Shown here: one piece after another, positions 1,786 to 35,970 of the stretch
How the letters are laid out: every line of letters begins with the position of its first letter
Numbering within the stretch: the first letter of the stretch is position 1
Notes under the pieces: generated by a model
What the model was told of the DNA's origin: nothing
Databases searched by the model: none
What the model saw: the letters and a program-made list of their open reading frames with translations, nothing else
Made by a program: the position numbers and the translations under genes
Origin: a virus
Lineage: Duplodnaviria > Caudoviricetes
IMG/VR virus record: IMGVR_UViG_3300027373_000203
Coordinates: 1-35,970 of that record
Direction: 5' to 3' (one strand)
Length of the DNA: 35,970 nucleotides

Positions 1786-2625
1786 ATGGAGTTCATACGA
1801 AATACTGAAATAAAATCTTGTGGTTCAGTAAACAGACAATTTGCTCTTTTCAAGTGCGAAAAATGTGGGTTACAAGTTGAAAAACAGAAAAGGCTAGGAC
1901 TAATTAATAAAACTTGTGGTTGTAACCATAATTATGTTGGATCTACAATAAATGGATTTAAAATAATTAGTCAAAAAGTAGTATCTCAAAGACATAAATG
2001 TATTGCAATATGCCCATATTGTAAATCAGAAAAAGAATACTTTGTTACATCGCTTAAAAATCAAAAATCATGTGGGTGTATGAATAAAGAATTTTATTTG
2101 CATGCTCATACAACTCACGGACTATCTTCGCATAGGCTCTATAATATACATAGAGGAATGTTACAAAGATGCTTTAATAAAAATGCAAAAAGCTATCAAA
2201 GATATGGTGCTCGTGGAATTACAATGTGCAATGAGTGGAAAAATGACTTTAAATCATTTTATGATTGGGCTATTTTAAATGGGTATGACGATGAGTTATC
2301 TATTGACAGAATAGACAATAATGGAAATTATGAGCCATCAAATTGTAGGTGGGCAGGAGATGAAATACAAAATAGAAATAAAGGGAAGAGAAAAAATAAT
2401 ACAACAGGTTTTATTGGTGTTTCATACATAAAGGAAAGAAAATTATATCTTGCATCAATAACTGTAAGTAAAGTTCAAATTAAACTTGGAGTTGCAAAAA
2501 CAGCAGAAGAAGCTTCTAAGATTTATGACAGTTATGTGTTTGATAATAATTTAGAACATTCCACAAATGTAGCTCGTGAAAATTGGAAGCAATACGGAGG
2601 AAGTGAGGATATTGATAATGGCTGA
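1786..2625 (+). CDS. HNH endonuclease with Cys-rich N-terminus and AP2-like C-terminal domain (homing-endonuclease type)
   Basis: YQRYGARGITMCNEW, SIDRIDNNGNYEPSNCRWA, NNTTGFIGVS motifs; CxxC and SCGC motifs. Confidence 0.85.
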   Translation: MEFIRNTEIKSCGSVNRQFALFKCEKCGLQVEKQKRLGLINKTCGCNHNYVGSTINGFKIISQKVVSQRHKCIAICPYCKSEKEYFVTSLKNQKSCGCMNKEFYLHAHTTHGLSSHRLYNIHRGMLQRCFNKNAKSYQRYGARGITMCNEWKNDFKSFYDWAILNGYDDELSIDRIDNNGNYEPSNCRWAGDEIQNRNKGKRKNNTTGFIGVSYIKERKLYLASITVSKVQIKLGVAKTAEEASKIYDSYVFDNNLEHSTNVARENWKQYGGSEDIDNG

Positions 2626-3376
2626 AAAACGTATGTTTTCAAATCAAATTATTGATAGCGATGCATTCCTAGATATGCCTGCAACTTCACAAAATCTTTA
2701 CTTTCATTTAGCTATGAGAGCAGATGATGAGGGATTTATTAATAGTCCTAAAAAGATAATGCGATCAATTGGTGCAAACGAGAACGATTTTGATGTTTTG
2801 GTGGCAAAAGGTTTTTTAATAGGTTTTGAGTCAAAAATTTATGTCATAAAACATTGGTGGGTACATAACTATATTCGTCAAGATAGGGTTAAAAGTACCA
2901 ATTACACATATGAAAGATCTCTTTTAAATTTAAAAGAAAATGGTGCTTACACGCTATGTCAGTCAAGTGACAGTCAAGTGGCTGACAAAAGTCAGGCTAG
3001 TATAGAAGAGAGTAGTATAGATAAGAATAGTTTAGATAAGAATAGTTTAGAAGAGGATAGTTTAGATAAAGAGAGTGTAGAGAAAAAACCTAAACGGTTT
3101 ATTCCTCCAACACTTGAAGAAATTGAAACTTTCATCAAAACTAACAACCTCAACGTAAATGCTAAATATTTTCTTGACTACTTCACAGATGGTAACTGGA
3201 TAGACAGCAAAGGAAATAAGGTTAAAAACTGGAAACAGAAACTAAGGACCTGGCATAACCATAACGATTCAAAACCAAAGTACAGAACACTAGCAGATAG
3301 TAACCGTGAGGCTATGGATGCATATGAAAAGCGCTTTAGCAATGATGTTATTGAGGGGGAATTATGCGAGCCTTAA
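2618..3376 (+). CDS. Phage replication initiator (replisome-organiser type)
   Basis: MAEKRMFS..IIDSDAFLDMP..Q.LYFHL.MRADDEGF N-terminus; F.PPTLEEI and NWKQKLRTW C-terminal motifs; internal repeats; ATG 2618 preferred over GTG 2576. Confidence 0.8.
   Translation: MAEKRMFSNQIIDSDAFLDMPATSQNLYFHLAMRADDEGFINSPKKIMRSIGANENDFDVLVAKGFLIGFESKIYVIKHWWVHNYIRQDRVKSTNYTYERSLLNLKENGAYTLCQSSDSQVADKSQASIEESSIDKNSLDKNSLEEDSLDKESVEKKPKRFIPPTLEEIETFIKTNNLNVNAKYFLDYFTDGNWIDSKGNKVKNWKQKLRTWHNHNDSKPKYRTLADSNREAMDAYEKRFSNDVIEGELCEP
2958..3087 (+). repeat. Probable phage origin iterons inside the initiator gene
   Basis: CAGTCAAGTG twice (2960-2969, 2971-2980), then five to six 15-bp units TAGTWTAGAWRAGRR (2998-3087). 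Confidence 0.65.
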
Positions 3377-3936
3377 TAGAACACATTGCAAATATGCTAA
3401 AGATTGATCTAAAAGACCCTTACGCTTTAGCTGACATTGCACAGGTGAAAGAGCTTGAAGGATTTAAGACTTTTATCGAAGATAACTTTAATGACATTCG
3501 TTTGAAGTTTGCTAATCCAATAGAGAAATTTCTACTTTTGCGGAAAATGTACTATGAAGAGCTTAATCGTGATCGATTAGAAAATGCTCATAAAGTTTCT
3601 TTTGCTATTGGTGAAAAGTTCAGAGAATTAAAACCTCAGCTTCGAGAGTTAGAAGATAAAGAGGTTTTAACTAGGTATTTGTCTCAAAACATTGATGGTG
3701 AAATGGTGAGGTGTTTTACTGATTTTGAAAACAACGCACTAGGAAAAATTGGAACTATCAAAAGGTTAATTTACCTAGATGATAATCACAAACTTGAAGA
3801 GGAACTAGACAAAGTATTTTCAAGTGTTGTTTATTATGGCAAAGAAACGCTCAGAATAGAGCAAAAAAAGCAAAATAACACTTTAGGCGATGAAAGACTC
3901 GATAAAACTTTTAACACAGCTTTAAACCGCATTTAA
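3364..3936 (+). CDS. Hypothetical protein in helicase-loader position
   Basis: 190-aa ORF overlapping the initiator stop; function inferred from position only. Confidence 0.6.
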   Translation: MRALIEHIANMLKIDLKDPYALADIAQVKELEGFKTFIEDNFNDIRLKFANPIEKFLLLRKMYYEELNRDRLENAHKVSFAIGEKFRELKPQLRELEDKEVLTRYLSQNIDGEMVRCFTDFENNALGKIGTIKRLIYLDDNHKLEEELDKVFSSVVYYGKETLRIEQKKQNNTLGDERLDKTFNTALNRI

Positions 3937-3945
3937 CTACTCAAC

Positions 3946-3964
3946 TGTTCGGAATTACCGAACA
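3946..3964. repeat. Intergenic inverted repeat
   Basis: TGTTCGG-AATTA-CCGAACA. Confidence 0.6.
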
Positions 3965-3988
3965 ACTCAAACAATCAAAGGTACATCT

Positions 3989-4792
3989 ATGAGCCTATTT
4001 GAATTACCAAAAAACAATATTGCTTCTGTAAATCTATTCGTAGATAAGAAAACAAGAGTTGAATTATTTAATGACAACTTCCAAAATTACAAGCGATACA
4101 ACATAAGAAAAGCACAGTTGGTTATCGCTGACATTCCTTATAACTTAGGGATTAATGCTTATGCTTCTAACCCTATGTGGTACGTTGATGGTGACAACAA
4201 AAACGGAGAAAGCAGCAAAGCAGGAAAAGATTTTTTTAACACGGATTTTAACTTCAATATTGCCGAGTATATGCACTTCTGCTCAAAGCTTCTTATTAAG
4301 GAGCCAAAAGAGACTGGGAAAGCTCCTGCGATGATTGTATTTTGTGCATTTCACCAAATGCAGATGATTATCGACTATGGCAAAAAGCACGGATTTAAAA
4401 ACAGTTACCCTTTATTTTTCGTAAAAGACTACTCAGCGCAGGTGTTAAAAGCCAATATGAAAATTGTCGGAGCCACAGAACATGCTGTAGTGCTTTATAG
4501 AGAGAAGCTACCAAAATTTAACAACAATGGGAAGATGGTTTTTAACTGGATTAAATGGGAACGTGATAGTAAAGACATTCCAAAAATTCACCCAACACAA
4601 AAGCCAGTTAATTTACTTGCAAAACTCATCAGAATTTTTACAGATGAAGGTGATGTGGTAATTGACCCTTGCGCTGGTAGTGCTTCAACATTGAGAGCGT
4701 GTGCAGAACTTAACCGACATTGCTATGGTTTTGAGGTATCAAAAGAGATCTATCAAAAAGCAAAAAAAGAAATGCTTTTACAAGGAGCTTAA
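3989..4792 (+). CDS. DNA N6-adenine/N4-cytosine methyltransferase (beta class)
   Basis: Variant motif IV DIPY, HPTQKP, motif I VIDPCAGSAS. Confidence 0.88.
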   Translation: MSLFELPKNNIASVNLFVDKKTRVELFNDNFQNYKRYNIRKAQLVIADIPYNLGINAYASNPMWYVDGDNKNGESSKAGKDFFNTDFNFNIAEYMHFCSKLLIKEPKETGKAPAMIVFCAFHQMQMIIDYGKKHGFKNSYPLFFVKDYSAQVLKANMKIVGATEHAVVLYREKLPKFNNNGKMVFNWIKWERDSKDIPKIHPTQKPVNLLAKLIRIFTDEGDVVIDPCAGSASTLRACAELNRHCYGFEVSKEIYQKAKKEMLLQGA

Positions 4793-4794
4793 TA

Positions 4795-4920
4795 ATGGAA
4801 TATTTATTACCACTAGCATTCTTCGCTTTCATTCTATGCCTCATTCCTTTTGTAGGTGGTAAGACAAAGAAGAAAGGATCTATTGACACCATTAAGAATG
4901 TGAGATGGTGGACGAGATAA
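4795..4920 (+). CDS. Small membrane peptide (41 aa, not in ORF track)
   Basis: MEYLLPLAFFAFILCLIPFVGGKTKKK...; AAGGAG RBS; stop overlaps the next ATG (TAATG). Confidence 0.55.
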   Translation: MEYLLPLAFFAFILCLIPFVGGKTKKKGSIDTIKNVRWWTR

Positions 4921-5858
4921 TGGAAGTTAACAAAATTTATAATATGGATGCAAGAAAAGCATTAAAACAATTACCAAACAACTCTATTGACTGCATTGTT
5001 ACAAGCCCACCATATTATCAACTTAGAGATTATGGTACTAATGGCCAGATTGGGCAAGAAAATACTCCTAGTGAGTATATTAAAAATCTTGTTTTAGTAT
5101 TTGAAGAATGCCATAGGGTATTAAAAGATAATGGAACATTATGGGTTAATATTGGTGATAGTTATGCAGGAAGCGGGAAAGGTCAATGGGGAAGTGGAGA
5201 AAATGATCCTAAAAAGAAAAAAACTTATGGCCAAAAACTAAACATTCAAAAACCACAAGATATTGGTCTTAAACCAAAAGATTTAATTGGCATTCCATGG
5301 CGCTTAGCTTTTGCATTACAAGATTTTGGATGGTATCTTATACAAGATATTATATGGCATAAACCAAACCCACTTCCTGAGAGCGTAACAGATCGATGTA
5401 CTAAATCACATGAGTATGTTTTTCTTCTTTCTAAAAATCAAAAATATTATTATGACCATGAAAGTATCAAAGAAGATACTGTTTATCCAATAGGGACTAG
5501 AACTGAAAAAAAACGTGGTGATTTTAAAGGAAAATACCACGCTCATGAAGATTTTAAACATATATCTGATTCTTTTAGAGCAATTAGAGATAAAAGAAAT
5601 AAAAGAGATGTTTGGACGGTTTCTACTAAAGCTTATAGAGGTGCTCATTTTGCAACATTTCCAGAAGAACTTATAGAGCCTTGTATTTTGTCAGGGTGTA
5701 GAAAAGGGGGAGTTGTACTAGATCCTTTTTTTGGGTCAGGAACAACTGGAGTCGTGGCCAAAAAGTATGGCCGTAATTTTATTGGCATAGAGCTAAATAG
5801 CGATTACGTAAATATTGCAAATAAACGCCTCGAAACCGTACAAGGTATTTTACTATGA
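4920..5858 (+). CDS. DNA N4-cytosine/N6-adenine methyltransferase (beta class)
   Basis: TSPPY motif IV, HFATFP, VLDPFFGSGTT motif I; start 4920 (TAATG coupling) or 4905. Confidence 0.92.
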   Translation: MEVNKIYNMDARKALKQLPNNSIDCIVTSPPYYQLRDYGTNGQIGQENTPSEYIKNLVLVFEECHRVLKDNGTLWVNIGDSYAGSGKGQWGSGENDPKKKKTYGQKLNIQKPQDIGLKPKDLIGIPWRLAFALQDFGWYLIQDIIWHKPNPLPESVTDRCTKSHEYVFLLSKNQKYYYDHESIKEDTVYPIGTRTEKKRGDFKGKYHAHEDFKHISDSFRAIRDKRNKRDVWTVSTKAYRGAHFATFPEELIEPCILSGCRKGGVVLDPFFGSGTTGVVAKKYGRNFIGIELNSDYVNIANKRLETVQGILL

Positions 5859-27365: not shown

Positions 27366-27557
27366 TTATAAAAATAAATGGCTATTATCAAGCATTTCAG
27401 ATCTTAATTTTTCAACACTTTTATGTTCAAAATAGCGTGCAATTATATTATCAATAATATTGTATTCTTTTGAAAAGAAGTCATATTCATTTCTTTTATT
27501 AATACATAGTGAAAGCAATAGAACATAATTTTGTATAGCTATATTATCTATTTGCAC
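27366..27557 (-). CDS. Hypothetical protein
   Basis: 63-aa ORF overlapping the nuclease stop; start uncertain. Confidence 0.4.
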   Translation of the reverse strand: MQIDNIAIQNYVLLLSLCINKRNEYDFFSKEYNIIDNIIARYFEHKSVEKLRSEMLDNSHLFL

Positions 27558-28045
27558 AATTTACTCATTACTTCAAAATCAATGCTCCACAGCCCTTTTT
27601 TTGAATCTTTAGCTTCTTGGAGTACATTATCAAGCTCTTTAGGGTATTTCGCCTTTTTATAGATGCAGGAGTAACCATCTTTGATGATCTGCGTTGAATA
27701 GTCAATACCGTTTTTGCTGACCGTTCCAAGCATACGTCCATATTGATCTTTTTTATCAGATGTTACGTTTACTTTATCGCCTGTTTGGAAGAACTTCGCA
27801 GCGTAACCACTTGATAGTTTTCCTGGCTCTTGTTCTTTGTCGGCTGATATTCCTGCTTTCTTTGCATCTTTCTCTAGTTTAGCGCCACCATACTTTTCAG
27901 GAGTATCGATATATAGAATACGGATTTTTTCTTCTTTACCGTTCATCTTAACATGTAGTGTATCACCATCTGTTACGTGTGTAACGATTGCTTCTGTGGC
28001 GAAAGATAGCGTGAAAAGTAGTGAGAGTAATAGTAATTTATGCAT
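27548..28045 (-). CDS. Exported thermonuclease (SNase family)
   Basis: Signal peptide MHKLLLLSLLFTLSFA; VTDGDT, IRILYIDTPE, DQYGRMLG, AK..KKGLW. Confidence 0.92.
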   Translation of the reverse strand: MHKLLLLSLLFTLSFATEAIVTHVTDGDTLHVKMNGKEEKIRILYIDTPEKYGGAKLEKDAKKAGISADKEQEPGKLSSGYAAKFFQTGDKVNVTSDKKDQYGRMLGTVSKNGIDYSTQIIKDGYSCIYKKAKYPKELDNVLQEAKDSKKGLWSIDFEVMSKLCK

Positions 28046-28566
28046 TAAATATCTTTTTTTGAATCAGCGTATTTTTTATTTTGTTCTTCAACTTTATTAG
28101 CACTTCTTATTGTAATATGTGATCTATCAATATTTGCAGCACCTAACCTTTGCATGTATAAAATTGATGATTTGCTATCTTCCATGAAACATTCTTTTTG
28201 ATTGAACGAAGCTCCAAGTTTGTTTCTAACAATACTATCTTCGCATTTAATATATTGATATTTATCCTTTATGATACTAAACACATCTCCAAAATAAATA
28301 GAATCGAAAGAGAAGCTTATATAATCTAATTTATCACCTCTAAATTCTAATGAAACAAATGCATCTTTGCCTGCGATAGTTATTTTTTTATTTCCTGTTT
28401 TGTTATCAGGATAATATGTATTTTTGTTAGTGCCTCTTCCTGTCCCTATATCATAAATCTTTGAAACTTCTTTTTTAGTCATACCTATTTTTAGGCTTTT
28501 TATTTCTAGTTCATCAGAGGCAAAACCAAATATCATTAATACCAAAATCAAAAACAATGATTTCAT
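28045..28566 (-). CDS. Exported protein of unknown function
   Basis: Signal peptide MKSLFLILVLMIFGFA; LKIGMTKKEV motif. Confidence 0.7.
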   Translation of the reverse strand: MKSLFLILVLMIFGFASDELEIKSLKIGMTKKEVSKIYDIGTGRGTNKNTYYPDNKTGNKKITIAGKDAFVSLEFRGDKLDYISFSFDSIYFGDVFSIIKDKYQYIKCEDSIVRNKLGASFNQKECFMEDSKSSILYMQRLGAANIDRSHITIRSANKVEEQNKKYADSKKDI

Positions 28567-28574
28567 AAATACTC

Positions 28575-29204
28575 CTATAAAAATTTAGCCCAATGGCTTT
28601 CACAAACTATTGATATTCCAGTATCTTTTATATCACGATATTCTACTGCTTTCTCAATCTTTCGTCCATAGCTTGAATGTGACCAATCTTTGCTTCCAAT
28701 ATCTCCAATCACAAGATAATCAGTATCTTTTTTGATAGTATCGTGAATAATCCCTCCAAGATCTTTTACGAGCTCTTCAAGGACTTTTCTAGCACCAGTT
28801 GTAAATACTCCAGTAAATACAAATGATGATCCTTCAAATACTATCTTAGGGGCAGGAACACATAAAGGTAAAGTACTACTCATACTTTCAGTATCTTCAC
28901 CTATCACCTCACCACCCGTAAGCTTTTGCATCAAATCAAATAAATCATCTTTTTCGTCTTCACTCAAATAACCATCTGACAACATTTCAGATATTCTTGT
29001 ATAAACAATGTTAAAAGGGTATGAAGAAACTAGATCACAATTTAAGTTAATCCAATTGATTATAAATTCCGCTTCTTTTTGGTTTATTTCACCATCTGCT
29101 ATAATCCCGCGGCAAATTCCTATAAGCTCATCTGCTTTTCTATCGCATACATCTTTAGCCCTGATAGCTCTGGTAATAAGTTGATTTTGTTCATCTGTTT
29201 TCAT
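28575..29204 (-). CDS. TerB-like N-terminal plus BRCT-domain protein
   Basis: GIIADGEINQKEA (TerB-like); FVFTGVF...R..L...V..LGG....I.K.TDYLVIG, YGRKIEKA, E..W (BRCT). Confidence 0.82.
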   Translation of the reverse strand: MKTDEQNQLITRAIRAKDVCDRKADELIGICRGIIADGEINQKEAEFIINWINLNCDLVSSYPFNIVYTRISEMLSDGYLSEDEKDDLFDLMQKLTGGEVIGEDTESMSSTLPLCVPAPKIVFEGSSFVFTGVFTTGARKVLEELVKDLGGIIHDTIKKDTDYLVIGDIGSKDWSHSSYGRKIEKAVEYRDIKDTGISIVCESHWAKFL

Positions 29205-29599
29205 GCTTCATTCTTATATTTTTTTTGGTCAAAAGTGAATATAGTTGTCATGCCAGTTGCACTACATGTAATCATTTTTCCTTCATCACGTAATTCATCG
29301 ATATCCAAATCTTCACCTCTTAGACCTTGAAGCTCTGCAAGATAAACCATTGGACCATGTTTAGGTTTTTTGCTTTTTAGTTCGCGTTCATATCCTCCCT
29401 TAAACCCAAGAGGAGGAAGTTCTCCATTTAAAGCTTTATTTGCTAATTCAGGATTACTAATTGCGAGCTCTCTCCCAAGCTCCCATGCAGTAATAAGCCC
29501 TTTATCTTCTTTATTCCATCTTTCATCAAAATTAGGCTTATTTCTGATATGTTCATTTATTGATCGATATACATAAATTTTTTGAGAAAATAGATTCAT
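29201..29599 (-). CDS. Hypothetical protein coupled to cI
   Basis: 132 aa; start overlaps the cI stop, stop overlaps the BRCT start. Confidence 0.75.
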   Translation of the reverse strand: MNLFSQKIYVYRSINEHIRNKPNFDERWNKEDKGLITAWELGRELAISNPELANKALNGELPPLGFKGGYERELKSKKPKHGPMVYLAELQGLRGEDLDIDELRDEGKMITCSATGMTTIFTFDQKKYKNEA

Positions 29600-30288
29600 T
29601 AAATTATTGTCCTTAGTACCTTTCCAAAAATTCTAAAAACACTTTGATCGTCAGGCTCAACGGTATAACTCTCATAGTCTTTATTTGCAGATACTATTCT
29701 AAGCATCCCATCGCTGTTAACTTGTAGTAATTTTACCATAAGAACATTACGCCAGTTGATGACATACATACCATCACCTTTAAAACATGTACTATCATCA
29801 AACACCACCCAACTATCTGGAAAAACCATTGGTATCATTGAGTATCCATCCACTTGCATAGCGAAAAGCTTGCTTGGTGGTGGTGTTTTAAAGGTGCAAA
29901 TATCAAGAACGAACTCGCCCATCTTTTCAACACTATCTATGCTCTCTATGTTTGAGCCATTTCCTGCGGATACATGTGGGGATAATTTTGTAGCGGTAAT
30001 TAGATTGTTTTGTGGTGAATATGATGGTTTGTCATGCGAAATTGCATTTATGTAAGGTATTGGTTCGTCATCTTTATAATTAAATGGGTTTGTCAGCCAT
30101 TCACTATTTACATTATATTGACTTGCGATATGTGATGCTTTTTGAAAGTTTGGAGAAGTCTCTCCAGCCTCGTAAGATGCGAGTGTTCTTTTGGATATTG
30201 ATAGTCTCTCAATGAACTCATCTTGTGACATTTTCATATCTTCTCTTAACAATTTTATTCTATTTGCAACGAGCATTTTAGAGTCCAT
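29599..30288 (-). CDS. cI: CI-like repressor (XRE HTH plus S24 peptidase)
   Basis: N-terminal HTH; SAG cleavage site, VDGYSM serine motif, VKLL lysine; AAGGA RBS. Confidence 0.93.
   Translation of the reverse strand: MDSKMLVANRIKLLREDMKMSQDEFIERLSISKRTLASYEAGETSPNFQKASHIASQYNVNSEWLTNPFNYKDDEPIPYINAISHDKPSYSPQNNLITATKLSPHVSAGNGSNIESIDSVEKMGEFVLDICTFKTPPPSKLFAMQVDGYSMIPMVFPDSWVVFDDSTCFKGDGMYVINWRNVLMVKLLQVNSDGMLRIVSANKDYESYTVEPDDQSVFRIFGKVLRTII
30034..30047. promoter_or_regulatory. Operator copy inside the cI coding region
   Basis: ATGCGAAATTGCAT, identical to 30302-30315. Confidence 0.6.
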
Positions 30289-30301: not shown

Positions 30302-30353
30302 ATGCGAAATTGCATTAAAACTCTTGACAAATGATGCGAAATTGCACTATAAT
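30302..30353 (+). promoter_or_regulatory. Lysis/lysogeny switch: two operators and the rightward promoter
   Basis: ATGCGAAATTGCAT (30302-30315) and ATGCGAAATTGCAC (30334-30347); TTGACA 30324-30329, 18-bp spacer, TATAAT 30348-30353. Confidence 0.85.
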
Positions 30354-30422
30354 TCTTTCATGCAAACAAAATCGACAAACAATCGAAAAAAGTTTAATAC
30401 CATACACCAAAAAGGGTTAAAA

Positions 30423-30623
30423 ATGATTGAATTAAATCTTTCAAAAATTCGTGAGGATTATGGATCTCTCGCAGAATTCGCAAGAAAAGAAGATATTCGC
30501 CTTCCTTTAATAGTTGCAATCACGAAAAAGAAAAGCGACCATTTCAAAAGTGGGAGCGATGCCTTCAAAGCCTTCAAAATTATCAAAAGACTTGGATACA
30601 TAAAAGAAAAGGAGATCGCATGA
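30423..30623 (+). CDS. cro: Cro-like protein
   Basis: Divergent from cI; YGSLAEFARKE HTH-like; ATG 30423 preferred because the 30324 track start is the -35 box. Confidence 0.65.
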   Translation: MIELNLSKIREDYGSLAEFARKEDIRLPLIVAITKKKSDHFKSGSDAFKAFKIIKRLGYIKEKEIA

Positions 30624-31282
30624 GCGCATTAGTTATCAACAATATACCAGTTAATTTGGTAGCGAAAGATGGAAAGGTGTTTGCAACGAGTTTAGATGTT
30701 GCTAAGGTTTTTGAAAAAGAACACAGAAGGGTTTTACAAGACATTAGAGAAATGAGTGAAAGAGCACAGCACAATTTCGTGCAGTCCTCATACATAAATT
30801 CTCAAAACAGAGAAATGCCTATGTATGAAATGAATAGAGATGGTTTCACATTTCTTGTAATGGGTTTTACAGGTGAAAAAGCTGAAAACTTCAAGCTTGA
30901 TTTTATTGATGGGTTTAACAAAATGGAAAATGCATTAAGAGAACAACAAAAATCATCACCTCTTCAAATTCTTGAACAAATGTTTCAAGTTGCAAAAGAG
31001 CATGACAACAGATTAGAAGCACTTGAGAAAACTAAACGTCTTGAAGGTTGGCAAGAAAAACGCCTAAAAGATGCAGTCAATCAAAAAGTATTTTCATTAA
31101 GCAATGGTGAAAAAGATTTATCTCCTCTCTATCGTGCTGTTTGGAGATTAGTAAAAAGTAGATTCACGGTACCAAGATACAGCGAGATACCATCTATAGA
31201 ATTTGATCAAGCGATTGACTTCGTAAACAGAATCAGAGTTATTGATCTTATTCAATCATTCGATTATTCAAAATCAGCTTAA
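30620..31282 (+). CDS. Rha-family regulator/antirepressor with ORF6C-like C-terminus
   Basis: TSLDVAKVFEKEHRRVLQDIR, MYEMNRDGFTFLVMGFTGEKA; C-terminal F.VPRYSEIP..EFDQA. Confidence 0.88.
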   Translation: MSALVINNIPVNLVAKDGKVFATSLDVAKVFEKEHRRVLQDIREMSERAQHNFVQSSYINSQNREMPMYEMNRDGFTFLVMGFTGEKAENFKLDFIDGFNKMENALREQQKSSPLQILEQMFQVAKEHDNRLEALEKTKRLEGWQEKRLKDAVNQKVFSLSNGEKDLSPLYRAVWRLVKSRFTVPRYSEIPSIEFDQAIDFVNRIRVIDLIQSFDYSKSA

Positions 31283-31856
31283 CACCTGAACAGAGTCACA
31301 ATGGTGGCTCTAGTTGAGTTGTTAAAACTCATTTTTATAAGTGTCTATGGAAACAAAACCATACAAAAAAAGGCTTTGAGACGTTTAGCGAAGCGTCCTA
31401 CGCGGTGGAACATGAGTTGTTCGGTAAAAAGCCACCTTGAACATAAGAGATTTATAAAGCCTATTTAGTCAGACCGTAGGTTTTATAAAACACACTATGA
31501 ATACAGCGCTGACACTGATCATCGGTCACTAGGCATAACGGGGTGACGGTAGTGTGTTTTAACCTCCCACTGAGAACATGACACATTCAACAACAATATA
31601 TTAAGTAGTGTTTATTTGATGAAAACAATGGTTTTGTGCGTGTTCTGATCGAGGGTTTATTTGATGGCATTAAGCATTCAACAATAGCACATGTTAATTC
31701 GAGAAAAAAAGGTTTTGCACGTGCCATCAAGTTTTTAAATGGTGAGTAGTCAAGTGGTCTGTTCAAGTATGGTACTTTTGAACATTGCTTATAGCAATAA
31801 AAATAAAACCTAAGACGAGAACGTAATGCGTCAGTAATGGGCTACTCACTTTTTAA
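31279..31856 (+). ncRNA. Candidate multi-domain structured RNA (array of about seven abutting stem-closed domains)
   Basis: No ORF of 60 aa or more over ~600 nt; consecutive long-range stems whose G-U pairs fit the + strand (detailed in findings). Confidence 0.55.
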
Positions 31857-31879
31857 GAACTTACACAAAGGAGAAAACA

Positions 31880-32002
31880 ATGCCTAAAGTATTTTGGCTA
31901 AACGCTTATGTAAAAGGCGATGAATGCGAAAAAACTGTTATTTTGAGACATTTGGATAGTCAATATCCAGCCTCAAAGTTAAAAATTGAAAGGAAGATAT
32001 GA
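31880..32002 (+). CDS. Small hypothetical protein (40 aa, not in ORF track)
   Basis: AAGGAG RBS; MPKVFWLNAYVKG...; ATGA overlap with the next gene. Confidence 0.6.
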   Translation: MPKVFWLNAYVKGDECEKTVILRHLDSQYPASKLKIERKI

Positions 32003-32244
32003 TGCCTGATGTTGAGTTGAGCGAAGATCAGTTTTTAGCTGACATTTTCAAAGATGGTTTCGAGGTTGTGATCGATGCTAATGATTTTAAGAAGGTGTTA
32101 CGCCAAAACGTAGAGCTTCACAGAATCGTCAAAGATCAACAGAAAACTATCGAAAATCAAAAAAATGCTAATGAGTTTCTGAGAGATCAGTTAAAAGAAT
32201 TACGAGAGCCTAGGGTTATCGTAAGATTGAATGCGAGGGCGTGA
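31999..32244 (+). CDS. Hypothetical coiled-coil protein
   Basis: 81-aa ORF. Confidence 0.6.
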   Translation: MMPDVELSEDQFLADIFKDGFEVVIDANDFKKVLRQNVELHRIVKDQQKTIENQKNANEFLRDQLKELREPRVIVRLNARA

Positions 32245-32308: not shown

Positions 32309-32503
32309 ATGAGCAAAGAAGATGAATATGATGAGTGTTTAATGATCGTATCTGAAATGTGCGAGCCTATCAAAGAGAAGATTAACGAAATATTCCAGTT
32401 AAGCAAAAAATACAGTATCAATGAAACTACCATATACAAAGAGATGTTCGAGCCTGAGCTATATGGCATGTTTTGCAAGAAACTATATGAGGAAAATAAA
32501 TGA
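32309..32503 (+). CDS. Hypothetical protein
   Basis: 64-aa acidic ORF, AAGG RBS, ATGA coupling. Confidence 0.55.
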   Translation: MSKEDEYDECLMIVSEMCEPIKEKINEIFQLSKKYSINETTIYKEMFEPELYGMFCKKLYEENK

Positions 32504-33285
32504 CAAATGAAGAATATCATTCACGAAGTGAGATCAGTTGCAGCCAAATAAAAACGATACTAAAAAATCCTTATGAATTTTTAGCAAAAGTTAAAAAAGA
32601 GCCTACAAAGAATATGGATTTTGGAAGTTGCGTGCATAAGTTGCTCCTAGAGCCTGACGAGTTTGAAAAAGAGTTTGCGATCATGCCAGAGATTGATAAG
32701 AGAACGAAAGAGGGAAAAGAACTTTATTCACAGTTTATGATACAACACGGAAGCAAAACGCTTTTAAATAGTGAAGATTTTGAAAAAGCAAAATGGTGCG
32801 CTCAAATAGCCAAAGAGATAGCCGGTGCATTTTTCAAAAATGGTGAGGCAGAACAAAGCTATTTTAGTGAACTTTACGGTGTACCTGTGCGATGCAGACC
32901 TGATTATTATATCGAAGATAAAGGCATTATCGTTGATGTAAAAACAACAGCCGATGCATCAAGAGATGGTTTCATAAAATCTATCGCCAATTTTGGGTAT
33001 CACATTCAAACAGCTTTTTACATGGACACGCTTAGAAGCCTTGGAATGAAGGCGGATAAATTCATGTTCGTGGCTATTGAAACAAAAGAGCCTTTTATGA
33101 TTGGACTTTATGAGCTTGACGATGTTTCAATCGAACATGGACGTACACAATACAAAAAAGCTTTAGAGCTTATCAGTAGTGGCAAGATTAACGAGTTCAC
33201 GGCACCGCTTTACAAAGACCAAAACGATTTTACAGTCGTTCAAACACTTACTTTACCAAATTACGTTTATTACCAAGGAGCATAA
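32500..33285 (+). CDS. RecE/exonuclease VIII-like PD-(D/E)XK nuclease (DUF3799 type)
   Basis: MTNEEYH, FGSCVHKLLLEP, RCRPD, DVKTT, YHIQTAFY. Confidence 0.88.
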   Translation: MTNEEYHSRSEISCSQIKTILKNPYEFLAKVKKEPTKNMDFGSCVHKLLLEPDEFEKEFAIMPEIDKRTKEGKELYSQFMIQHGSKTLLNSEDFEKAKWCAQIAKEIAGAFFKNGEAEQSYFSELYGVPVRCRPDYYIEDKGIIVDVKTTADASRDGFIKSIANFGYHIQTAFYMDTLRSLGMKADKFMFVAIETKEPFMIGLYELDDVSIEHGRTQYKKALELISSGKINEFTAPLYKDQNDFTVVQTLTLPNYVYYQGA

Positions 33286-33286
33286 A

Positions 33287-34087
33287 TTGAGCGCTATTAT
33301 TGAAAGAAAAAATCAAATCACCGGAATTATGAATAGCAAAGAGATCACAGATCGTTTAAATTCACTATTCTCAAAAAACGAAGATAAGGCGAGCAAATTC
33401 AAAGCAACACTTCTTAATATTGCACTTGATAATAGTTTGAATACGTGTACTCCTGCATCAATCGTAAAATCAGCATTAATGATCGCTGAACTTGGATTGC
33501 CACTTGCAAAAGGATTAGGGCAGGCATACATCGTGAAGTATAAACAAGATGCAGAAGCACAGATCGGTTATAAAGGGTGGTTGGCACTTGCAGAACGTAA
33601 CGGAAAATCAGTCAAAGCAAAGCCTATTTTTAAATGCGATGAATTTGAATTGATTGATAATGGATTTGATGAGACTGTTGTTTTTAAACCAAACCATGAT
33701 GAGCGTAAAGAGTATCAGCCGCAATGGGTGAAAGATAATCTAAAAGGTGTTTTGGTAGCTGTTAAAGACATCAATACAGGTGTAATTAGTAATGCTTTTG
33801 TAAGTATCGGAAAATTAAACCAAATTGCAGGTGTATCACCATCGGTTAAAAAAGGAGGATATAGCCCTTATACAGATTGGGGATTAGAGATGTTCCAGGG
33901 CAAAGCGATTAAGTATATTTTGTCAAAAACAGCGATGAATGAAGATTTTGGGAGAGCGGTAGAAATTGATAACCAAATGGACATTAAAGCAATTGAAGAT
34001 CATCGAGATAAAAAAGATGACATTGATTTGAACGCCATGTTTGAAGAAGCTGAAATCGTAGAGGTATCTGAAAATGACACAAAATAG
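33287..34087 (+). CDS. recT: RecT-family single-strand annealing protein
   Basis: LGLP...LGQAYIVKY...AEAQIGYKGWLALAER; TTG start after AAGGAG. Confidence 0.88.
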   Translation: MSAIIERKNQITGIMNSKEITDRLNSLFSKNEDKASKFKATLLNIALDNSLNTCTPASIVKSALMIAELGLPLAKGLGQAYIVKYKQDAEAQIGYKGWLALAERNGKSVKAKPIFKCDEFELIDNGFDETVVFKPNHDERKEYQPQWVKDNLKGVLVAVKDINTGVISNAFVSIGKLNQIAGVSPSVKKGGYSPYTDWGLEMFQGKAIKYILSKTAMNEDFGRAVEIDNQMDIKAIEDHRDKKDDIDLNAMFEEAEIVEVSENDTK

Positions 34088-34244
34088 ACCAACAATCAGA
34101 GATTTATAAGACAATGATCTTCTAAAAATTGCCAAAGAAGTTTTTGAAGCATGGGAAGGAGATTTTGAAACTTCTGATATTAGTGAAGATGATATTTTTA
34201 ATGCAATTAAAGACATAAGGAATAGTGATGCTACCAAGGGTTAA
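34074..34244 (+). pseudogene. Short ORF interrupted by an in-frame TAA
   Basis: GAGG RBS; MTQNRPTIRDL*DNDLLKIAKEVFEAWEG...; stop at 34107-34109. Confidence 0.45.
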
Positions 34245-34656
34245 TTTAATAGGCAGACTTACAAGAGGTCCTGAAATAAAATATCTTCCAAGTGGAACAT
34301 GTGTATCTAGCTTTGGGGTAGCTTCAAGCGAGAAACAAAAAGACAAAGAAATTGTTTGTTTTATAGATTGCGTTGTCTTTGGTGGGTTAGCAGAAAAAGT
34401 CGTACAACCATATCTTAAAAAAGGTAGTCAAATCTATGTTGAAGGTCGTTTAAAACTCGATCAATGGACTGACCAGCAAGGTGTAAAGCGCTCAAAGCAC
34501 TCTATCACCGTTGAAACATTACAGATGATGGATAGCAGACAAGACAGCGCAAATGAACAGCAACAGTCAAGACCAAACGTATCAGTTCGTACACCTGATG
34601 GAAAAATCCATGATATACCTGATATTGACATTAATGACGATGAAATACCATTTTGA
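34228..34656 (+). CDS. ssb: Single-stranded DNA-binding protein
   Basis: VNLIGRLTR.PEIKY, YLKKGSQIYVEGRL, acidic DDEIPF tail. Confidence 0.95.
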   Translation: MLPRVNLIGRLTRGPEIKYLPSGTCVSSFGVASSEKQKDKEIVCFIDCVVFGGLAEKVVQPYLKKGSQIYVEGRLKLDQWTDQQGVKRSKHSITVETLQMMDSRQDSANEQQQSRPNVSVRTPDGKIHDIPDIDINDDEIPF

Positions 34657-34664
34657 GGTGAAAG

Positions 34665-34958
34665 ATGAGCGAAAACGAGATACAAGAACAAGCGAAACAA
34701 ACCGCTAAGTATCTCGTTGCTTTCATGGGTGTTGAATTAAAGAGAATTATGTACCCTACAGAAGTTAAAGGAGATGCCTTAGCAGGTCAAATTCTTGGAG
34801 TTTCAGCAGACACAATGAAGCAGCGTAGGAACAGAGGTTTTTATCGTGACAAATATCACTATTACAAAAAATCTGATAAAATTGTGATGTGGTATAGAGA
34901 TGCCTTGTTAGAAGAATGGAGCTACCAAAATGGAAGTAAAGCTTTACTCTCGTCCTAA
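34665..34958 (+). CDS. Putative excisionase/HTH DNA-binding protein
   Basis: AGQILGVSADTMKQRR HTH; overlaps the integrase start. Confidence 0.6.
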   Translation: MSENEIQEQAKQTAKYLVAFMGVELKRIMYPTEVKGDALAGQILGVSADTMKQRRNRGFYRDKYHYYKKSDKIVMWYRDALLEEWSYQNGSKALLSS

Positions 34959-35970
34959 CAAGGATGGTAAAAAAGTTCTTTATGTGGATTACACAGAAGA
35001 AAGTGGAAGGAGGGTGAGAAGGTCACTCAACCTCCAAGAATCTAAGGCAAATATCGCTTATGTAAAGAGAAATATTATACCTGAAATTGAGCGTAAAATA
35101 AAGTATGGTGTAGAATTTCGAGAGTACAAAATGAGCGAATTTACAGACATTGTTCTGAAAAAAGCTAAGGAAAACAAAAAAATCAATACGTTTGTTACCT
35201 ATGAAAAAGCAGTAAATAAATTCTACTCTATTATGGGTGATGTAAATATTGAGAAGATTTTTGTAAAGAATATTGAAAATTACGTAAATTCTTTAAAGAG
35301 AGAAGGTCTTTCTAGCGCTACGATTAATTTATATCTAGTTCCTATAAAGATGGCTTTTAAAGAAGCTATGAGATTAGAAATAATTGACAAAAATCCAGTT
35401 CCTTTGGCTGATAAGCCGATAGTTAAAAACAAAGAAAAGAAAGTTTTTAACCTCATACAAATGCATCAAATTTTAGAAAAAGCAGAAGGTGAGTTAAAGA
35501 CGTTTTTGTACTTTGCGTTCTTTACTGGTGCAAGACCTGGAGAAATTGTTGCTTTAAGATGGAGTGATATTTCAAACAATATGATTTTCATTAATCGTAC
35601 TTCTATACAGAACGGAAAAATGGAAAATCTACCAAAAGGCGGTAAAAAAAGAAGTTTTGATTTGCTAAAACCTCTTGGAGATTATCTTTTAACTATTGAT
35701 AAAAAAAGAGATAAGATATTTTCATATAAATATGAGGCTTATGCAAGGAGCTTTTCACGCTTTTTGGTTAATAAAGGGTTTGAAAGAAACACATTACATT
35801 CAACAAGGCATACATTCACAAGCCTTCTAATGAAGTCAAGAGAAGATCCAACATTGATACAGTATTTTTTAGGTCATTCTTCGCTGAATATGATTAATAA
35901 AGTTTATGCACATTATATTCATGATGAGAATGATGCTAAGAGATTAGGAAATATGTTGGCACAATCTTGA
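34930..35970 (+). CDS. int: Tyrosine integrase
   Basis: TGARPGE (R), K, HSTRH, LGH, VYAHY; N-terminal arm-binding-like and SAM-like domains. Confidence 0.96.
   Translation: MEVKLYSRPNKDGKKVLYVDYTEESGRRVRRSLNLQESKANIAYVKRNIIPEIERKIKYGVEFREYKMSEFTDIVLKKAKENKKINTFVTYEKAVNKFYSIMGDVNIEKIFVKNIENYVNSLKREGLSSATINLYLVPIKMAFKEAMRLEIIDKNPVPLADKPIVKNKEKKVFNLIQMHQILEKAEGELKTFLYFAFFTGARPGEIVALRWSDISNNMIFINRTSIQNGKMENLPKGGKKRSFDLLKPLGDYLLTIDKKRDKIFSYKYEAYARSFSRFLVNKGFERNTLHSTRHTFTSLLMKSREDPTLIQYFLGHSSLNMINKVYAHYIHDENDAKRLGNMLAQS

Follow-up and report, generated by a model that had tools for sequence, protein, structure and literature searches.

A modular array of covarying RNA motifs in the early operon of a provirus

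The window analysed here is the whole 35,970-nt stretch of an IMG/VR provirus record, of which 94% is coding. Between the rha/antirepressor gene and the recombination genes of its early operon lies a series of predicted RNA domains, H1 to H7, and the features of this region are the following.

29599..30288, minus strand: CI-like repressor gene, divergent from the early promoter (PHROG 4, E 5e-33)
30324..30353, plus strand: consensus sigma-70 promoter, 12/12 (promoter scan)
30426..30623, plus strand: 65-aa ORF in the position of cro (ORF call)
30620..31282, plus strand: Rha/antirepressor gene (PHROG 373, E 4e-46; PHROG 518, E 1e-34)
31277..31327, plus strand: H1, long interrupted hairpin at the gene end (z −4.6)
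31372..31436, plus strand: H2, hairpin with a conserved CUACG...CGGUAAA core closed by a 5-bp stem (homologues)
31451..31489, plus strand: H3, 13-bp hairpin (z −4.7)
31487..31560, plus strand: H4, three-way-junction motif of ~75 nt (18-sequence alignment; model R1)
31570..31650, plus strand: H5, first copy of the H5/6 motif (alignment; model R2, 79 bits, a training sequence)
31661..31730, plus strand: H6, second copy of the H5/6 motif (alignment; model R2)
31729..31862, plus strand: H7, ~20-bp closing frame around an exchangeable interior of ~90 nt (homologues)
31866..32002, plus strand: ribosome-binding site and conserved 40-aa ORF at the array's close (sequence)
31999..32244, plus strand: 81-aa early ORF (relatives 79-94% identical)
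32500..34656, plus strand: exonuclease VIII, RecT-like annealing protein and SSB (PHROGs 412, 148 and 44)
34930..35970, plus strand: integrase, the end of the early operon (PHROG 1, E 3e-56)

Judged from the promoter sequence, the early transcript through the array likely starts at 30324..30353. Two 24-nt direct repeats that are 88% alike (30302-30357) overlap the divergent promoters and are likely the CI operators. The 65-aa ORF had no match in the PHROG search, and its position suggests that it is cro. The stop codon of rha sits within H1, and the gene order after the array is three small ORFs, exonuclease VIII, RecT, SSB, a 97-aa ORF and integrase; the 40-aa ORF recurs in the homologous loci L005, L012 and L176. 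A Campylobacterota host is suggested, because the best match of Rha among genome contigs is a Sulfuricurvum MAG (49%) and the best matches of the exonuclease among annotated phages are Campylobacter phages (40%). Behind cI lie four accessory genes on the minus strand (27548-29599), which are possibly lysogenic defence cargo; one codes for a nuclease (PHROG 452) and another for a PHROG 3989 protein whose C-terminus has a match of DNA-ligase type; in L005 a different gene, exonuclease-like by sequence, is found directly behind cI.

All 20 helix arms that an earlier note on this DNA had named were located where it placed them, and its proposal that the region folds better than shuffled sequence was upheld, as the segment 31270-31860 has a folding energy of −156.3 kcal/mol, its shuffles averaging −132.1 (z −3.77, with 0 of 100 shuffles as good). 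The minus strand of the same segment gave z −2.64, and the z values of the single modules were −4.6 (H1), −0.35 (H2), −4.7 (H3), −3.6 (H4), −1.9 (H5), −2.3 (H6) and −4.9 (H7), all predicted helices of the region being local. When 15 other 591-nt segments of the genome were folded as controls with 15 shuffles each, 13 were weaker than z −2 and one beat the array (−6.0 vs −5.4). This stronger-folding control is integrase coding sequence (35001-35591; z −6.0 from 15 shuffles). Since the folding z alone is not unique to the array, covariation is the real evidence for the modules. Of 15 arrays, only 8 folded better on the sense strand, so that folding energy does not tell the strand; the reading of the G-U pairs as a sign of selection on RNA was borne out by the homologue alignments of H4 and H5/6, in which 16 G-U cells stand against 2 A-C cells. 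The segment 31283-31998 is the genome's largest gap without ORFs of at least 60 aa, and the description of the region as ORF-free holds at that length; taken strictly it fails, as a 55-aa ORF on the plus strand (31301-31468) and ORFs of 41 and 59 aa on the minus strand exist. The 55-aa ORF is shortened to 29 aa in L005 and interrupted by an in-frame stop in L176, and by this comparison it shows no conservation. The array of folded domains between rha and the recombination genes is thus confirmed as real.

H4 combines a variable closing stem with conserved GAAUAC and AUCGG junction strands and a loop bearing ACGGG. Its copies were collected by pattern scans, which yielded 11 true copies among 43 viral matches plus 11 metagenome matches; loose pattern scans gave mostly noise, which was dropped (32/43, 67/71, 8/14 and 11/16). 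The resulting set held 20 distinct sequences, of which 18 were aligned and two near-copies of the window were left out. In this alignment, 97.7% of cells were paired and 12 of 17 pairs varied on both sides, compared with 33-47% in slid controls, the counts for H4 and for H5/6 being inflated by related sequences and the invariant core letters of both motifs having been fixed by the search patterns. The closing stem of H4 lies outside the search pattern, and there 9 of 9 pairs covary. Model R1 built on H4 was run on overlapping sets of genomes, matching 3 of 61, 2 of 151 and 2 of 151, and it added three copies from outside its training set (63, 59 and 33 bits). By its covariation across these sequences, H4 is a conserved RNA motif. 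In L046, a diverged H4-like unit with the same junction letters and changed helices, unreported by R1, directly follows H4.

The surroundings of H4 were compared across 22 loci. It starts 14-18 nt behind a −10 hexamer, that is, at the predicted transcript start, in six of them, and it precedes a ribosome-binding site and an ORF of at least 30 aa in seven, with two more loci carrying ORFs of 24 and 29 aa. Among the 56 of 103 listed neighbouring ORFs that were scanned, those with a match were for the most part early, recombination or replication genes of phages. The H4 copy of L030 instead sits among head genes in antisense orientation, and no long ORF on its own strand follows it directly; before this copy the promoter scan found no −35/−10 pair, only a TG-extended −10 hexamer being visible. 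Because promoter, downstream ORF and neighbours all vary, H4 has no fixed position or partner gene.

H5 and H6, which had been taken for separate domains, proved to be two copies of one motif, although their positions were right. The H5/6 motif consists of a closing stem, the strands CAUUCAACA ... GGUUUUG and a variable middle. In an alignment of eight sequences, two of them nearly identical, 96.7% of cells were paired and 9 of 15 pairs varied on both sides, compared with 30-53% in slid controls; the innermost three pairs are invariant across the alignment and are therefore without covariation. By this evidence H5/6 is a conserved RNA motif, its innermost three pairs being unproven. Among the 61 genomes, strong copies reported by model R2 occur in the same three genomes as those of R1. 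Weak R2 matches in G328, in G402 and at a second site in G061 were put down to chance. Within the motif, two conserved strings, UUCAA and (A/U)GGU, resemble the consensus letters of the tRNA T-loop and D-loop.

Hairpins related to H1 with a changed inner stem are found in four other loci (L008, L176, L179 and L202), and their pairs were left uncounted because the MAFFT alignment was out of register. H2 can form two alternative closing stems: the outer stem proposed earlier is present, but measures 6, 3 and 5 bp in three homologues, whereas a different 5-bp stem (31404-31408 with 31432-31436) is kept in 3 of 3, including the homologues L052 and L202, a weak comparison at n = 3. H3 was seen only in near-identical copies (L047/L136, L176 and L190), so that it was given no covariation test. 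The stem of a small hairpin between H1 and H2 (31345-31364) also turns up in the L005 replacement block, which is otherwise unrelated.

Whether the region is one large non-coding RNA or a polycistronic cassette of several small RNAs had been left as alternatives, and comparison of loci rejects the former and favours the latter. In L005, whose Rha is 95% identical, H1 and H5-H7 are kept and the slot of H2-H4 holds an unrelated hairpin block of 160 nt; genes lie inside the array in L176 (a short gene between H4 and H5) and in L136 (two genes between H3 and H4); and in L012, H6 and then H4 stand ahead of the same 40-aa ORF as in the window. Across 17 arrays mapped by motif, the module order differs, with examples such as H2>H7>H4, H4>tRNA-like>H5/6 and H4 without any other module of the window, and in one contig H4 is joined straight to H7. 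Together with covariation and the negative Rfam scans, this shuffling supports the cassette of small RNAs: the region is an array of independent modules that are predicted to fold as separate RNAs. In L192, the array is present twice within ~1 kb with a small gene between, the second copy carrying a different unit in the H4 slot.

The closing stem of H7, previously counted as 11 bp, is actually ~20 bp long (31729-31749 with 31842-31862), and the frame that it forms encloses at least five kinds of interior, some of them tRNA-derived: the type of the window, of which L136 and L129 have variants; a short type in L176; in L052, an interior resembling tRNA-Leu, of which runs X2 and X11 hold loose ends; in L137, an interior that bears a canonical T-arm; and interiors of 32-33 nt in three variants (runs X1, X5, X7, X11 and X13), the range given for such short interiors in relatives being 32-36 nt. 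In L129 the frame itself is altered with compensation, and 8 of 30 predicted pairs vary on both sides across four rows. The exchange between phages likely proceeds by homologous recombination across the shared frames of ~20 nt, with the neighbouring annealing proteins as candidate agents.

Furthermore, sister arrays contain tRNAs oriented in the modules' direction, namely a tRNA-Met in L137, a tRNA-Trp in L186 and, in L129 (1730-1788, minus strand), a tRNA without an anticodon arm that scores 40.4 bits with the Rfam tRNA model. In this last unit the acceptor, D and T arms are intact and ~3 nt replace the anticodon arm; it is the first unit of its array, and the H7 homologue is the last. Canonical T-arms number eight on the array sense strand (8,996 nt), none antisense and three in 262,000 nt outside, the eight coming from 4 of 25 arrays and none from that of the window. 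ARAGORN likewise found no tRNA gene in the window, and its array has no canonical T-arm. The arrays of L137 and L189 share a module in which a single closing stem encloses two T-arms and two D-loop-like stretches, and they also contain a unit that resembles tRNA-Leu but has an altered T-loop.

We propose, at a probability of roughly 0.45, that host RNases cut up the early polycistron and that the resulting small, stable RNAs bind proteins in trans as decoys. This proposal builds on what is established, namely the structures of H4 and H5/6, the independence of the modules, the exchange of H7 interiors and the tRNA units in sister arrays. The array would be transcribed from the early promoter as one early transcript, each unit would fold locally within the long message, and RNase III would release the units at long closing stems and A/U-rich linkers, with other host RNases trimming the ends. 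The released units would then be stable RNAs of 50-135 nt acting in trans, and their conserved loops may bind host proteins as decoys, the most plausible targets being nucleases or sensors directed at tRNA. Defences that cleave tRNA are countered by phage tRNAs, and it is by analogy with this anti-defence role, and from the tRNA company of the sister arrays, that the decoy role is suggested.

The closing stems bear on the release step. They extend past shuffled flanks in 16 of 33 instances, with a median of 19 bp, several of the 33 rows being related and the six H7 rows not independent because all share one frame. An A/U-rich outer helix of the AAGCUUUU/UUUUAAGAGCUU type recurs around unrelated interiors. 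Extension was found in none of the six H4 copies that start at a −10 box, compared with 7 of 14 internal copies. Within the window, H7 has the closing helix of ~20 bp expected of an RNase III-processed polycistron; the stems of H4, H5 and H6 measure only 12-15 bp and show no significant extension (p 0.11, 0.67 and 0.76). RNase III was present in 5 of 5 host genomes tested. All eight public runs compared for expression consist of contigs, and the two recorded metatranscriptomes among them gave patchy, low cover. In run X2, contigs over H5-H7 and the 40-aa ORF had depths of 1,800-5,700 and those over rha-H4 had depths of 14-37; this was rejected as evidence of transcription, because the run was flagged as probably DNA and the contigs belong to a variant with other flanks.

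A more specific version of the decoy proposal assigns a part to each motif and, taken jointly, is unlikely to be right in full. H5/6 could be a minimal mimic of the tRNA elbow in an RNA-only counter-defence arsenal, its UUCAA acting as the T-loop-like and its AUGGU as the D-loop-like element on one helix without anticodon or CCA, and might in this way soak up tRNA-directed defence nucleases or sensors; H4 could be a second, unrelated decoy fold; and the ~20-bp frame could serve both as a recombination arm and as an RNase III release signal for interchangeable RNA cargo.

The main rival to decoys acting in trans, and one with a sizeable though clearly smaller chance of being correct, is that the modules are punctuation acting in cis, which would process, stabilise or insulate the message and thereby protect or tune the downstream genes. 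The T7 early transcript, with its RNase III sites, is an analogue. The placement of H4 at predicted transcript starts or directly ahead of a ribosome-binding site and ORF in part of the 22 loci agrees with such a role, as do the H1-like hairpins that come after gene ends and the position of H7 before the 40-aa ORF. However, seven modules in a row would here serve one downstream gene, the loop letters of H4 are invariant at every position, the L030 copy has no long same-strand gene directly after it, and tRNAs fill equivalent slots in sister arrays, all of which speaks against punctuation.

Less probable again is that the modules are base-pairing small RNAs. P4 CI and P1 C4 are immunity RNAs, and the location of the array in an early operon beside an antirepressor gene would suit a similar function. 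Pairing with host or phage mRNAs has a parallel in lambda LPR1/PreS, LPR1 being an 88-nt RNA of the early left operon (10.1101/2024.10.31.621285). Against this, a perfect-complement scan of the window with six conserved motifs of 8-9 nt disclosed no local target for the antisense immunity that had been proposed: five of the six had no perfect complement on the plus strand, and the sixth had three (0.44 expected), all outside the early operon. Rfam gave no match either.

An antiterminator leader acting in cis, as in HK022 put, would modify RNA polymerase for transcription of the long early operon. Many arrays lie directly behind a strong early promoter, and a scan found no terminator-like site inside the array; yet the array of the window begins ~920 nt from the promoter, the order and content of arrays vary, and the L030 copy has nothing to antiterminate, so that we regard this explanation as improbable. 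Self-cleaving ribozymes, in which one or more modules such as H2 and H4 would punctuate the transcript, are more improbable still: the invariant junction nucleotides in a small multihelix fold are reminiscent of them, but no Rfam 15 ribozyme family matched down to E 10, and by inspection the H4 alignment has no covarying pseudoknot. A single large ornate RNA of the ROOL or GOLLD kind, suggested by a length near 580 nt and by the phage location of that kind (10.1101/2024.12.08.627333), is largely refuted and very improbable, since blocks are replaced, reordered or split by genes, helices are local and Rfam gave no match. Chance folding, decayed genes or small proteins, for which one coding segment that folds equally strongly and the existence of the 55-aa ORF could be cited, are refuted for H4, H5/6 and H7 by covariation and by the lack of conservation of that ORF; they may still account for H3, but have next to no likelihood overall.

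Collectively, the array is real, covarying and modular, with two well-supported uncatalogued motifs and a frame for exchangeable cargo, from which a function as released decoys is inferred. Two RNA motifs, and probably a third, can thus be added to the catalogue for phages of Campylobacterota-like hosts. H4 and H5/6 are small, alignable and strongly covarying and H7 provides a natural swap series, so that excision, binding and anti-defence activity become questions testable module by module. If the modules are decoys, phage early regions would carry, in addition to the anti-defence proteins already known, an arsenal of shuffled RNAs.

The view that the array matches no known family held up, as Rfam 15 had no match in the window (best E 0.58 in the region) and only tRNAs in the homologous loci. 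Twister, hammerhead, RNase P and CRISPR repeats had been considered for their likeness to the modules and were set aside, as no Rfam family matched. When the region was compared with annotated phages and plasmids by BLAST, short chance matches were all that appeared, and BLAST of the L182 and L137 arrays gave short chance matches or, among the matches listed, tRNA only. R1 and R2 had no match in the 25 kb searched of Campylobacter phage DA10 and a Helicobacter prophage. In DA10, two long-stem hairpins that match neither R1 nor R2 precede the antirepressor gene (L237:2560-2810); the 523-nt gap there folds at z −6.7, and the first hairpin ends in the same type of linker.

Bacterial Y RNAs (YrlA) have a long closing stem with tRNA-like D/T elements, a likeness shared by some H7 interiors; they differ from the array in that Rfam found no match and in that the Ro60/TROVE gene was present in 0 of 5 host genomes tested, genomes that are possibly incomplete. 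Candidate structured viral RNAs from IMG/VR, including tRNA-like and cis-regulatory ones, have been described by Fremin et al. (PMC10690425); our six motif strings had no match in three supplement files of that article, of which other files may list one. The literature searched, mostly non-subscription, yielded no account of these motifs, nor of arrays like this in phages of Campylobacterota. GOLLD and ROOL are non-coding RNAs of phages and prophages, have no known function and frequently lie close to tRNA islands (10.1101/2024.12.08.627333), a proximity seen in some sister arrays only. Each of them forms one fold with long-range pairing, the lengths being 659 nt and over 800 nt, whereas the array lacks one long fold with a fixed domain order and its units are local, independent and shuffled. 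LPR1/PreS shares with the array only its location in the early operon of a temperate phage (10.1101/2024.10.31.621285); the 3′-end of LPR1 is of the terminator type and the RNA works through base pairing on Hfq, whereas the array has many structured units and no terminator-like site.

The closest comparison is with phages T4 and T5. To call the array an undescribed system was too strong, because the tRNA clusters of these phages hold stable RNAs of unknown function, although the motifs themselves look new. GenBank annotates RNAI, RNAIII, RNAIV, RNA1, RNA2, RNA2H, RNA3 and RNAX of T5 as "stable RNA with unknown functions" and rnaC and rnaD of T4 as "small, stable RNA". T4 rnaD (L227) has, close to its 5′-end, a 13-nt hairpin that recurs identically in a further sister-array module (L017:185-197 and L181:1619-1631), with a variant in L180; the match could be either chance or a shared T-loop-like element. 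The T4 and T5 RNAs are not homologous to the array, R1 giving a best E of 0.41 and R2 nothing at E ≤ 1, and they belong to virulent coliphages with many tRNAs, whereas the present phage is small and temperate, its array holds no tRNA and its modules exchange visibly. Like the array, however, they are abutting non-coding units of 70-170 nt in phage operons, some of them tRNA-like, and the folds of RNAIII and RNAIV of T5 resemble that of H7 in having a multibranch loop enclosed by a long closing stem. By this analogy, the array likely works in the manner of the non-tRNA stable RNAs in the tRNA clusters of T4 and T5.
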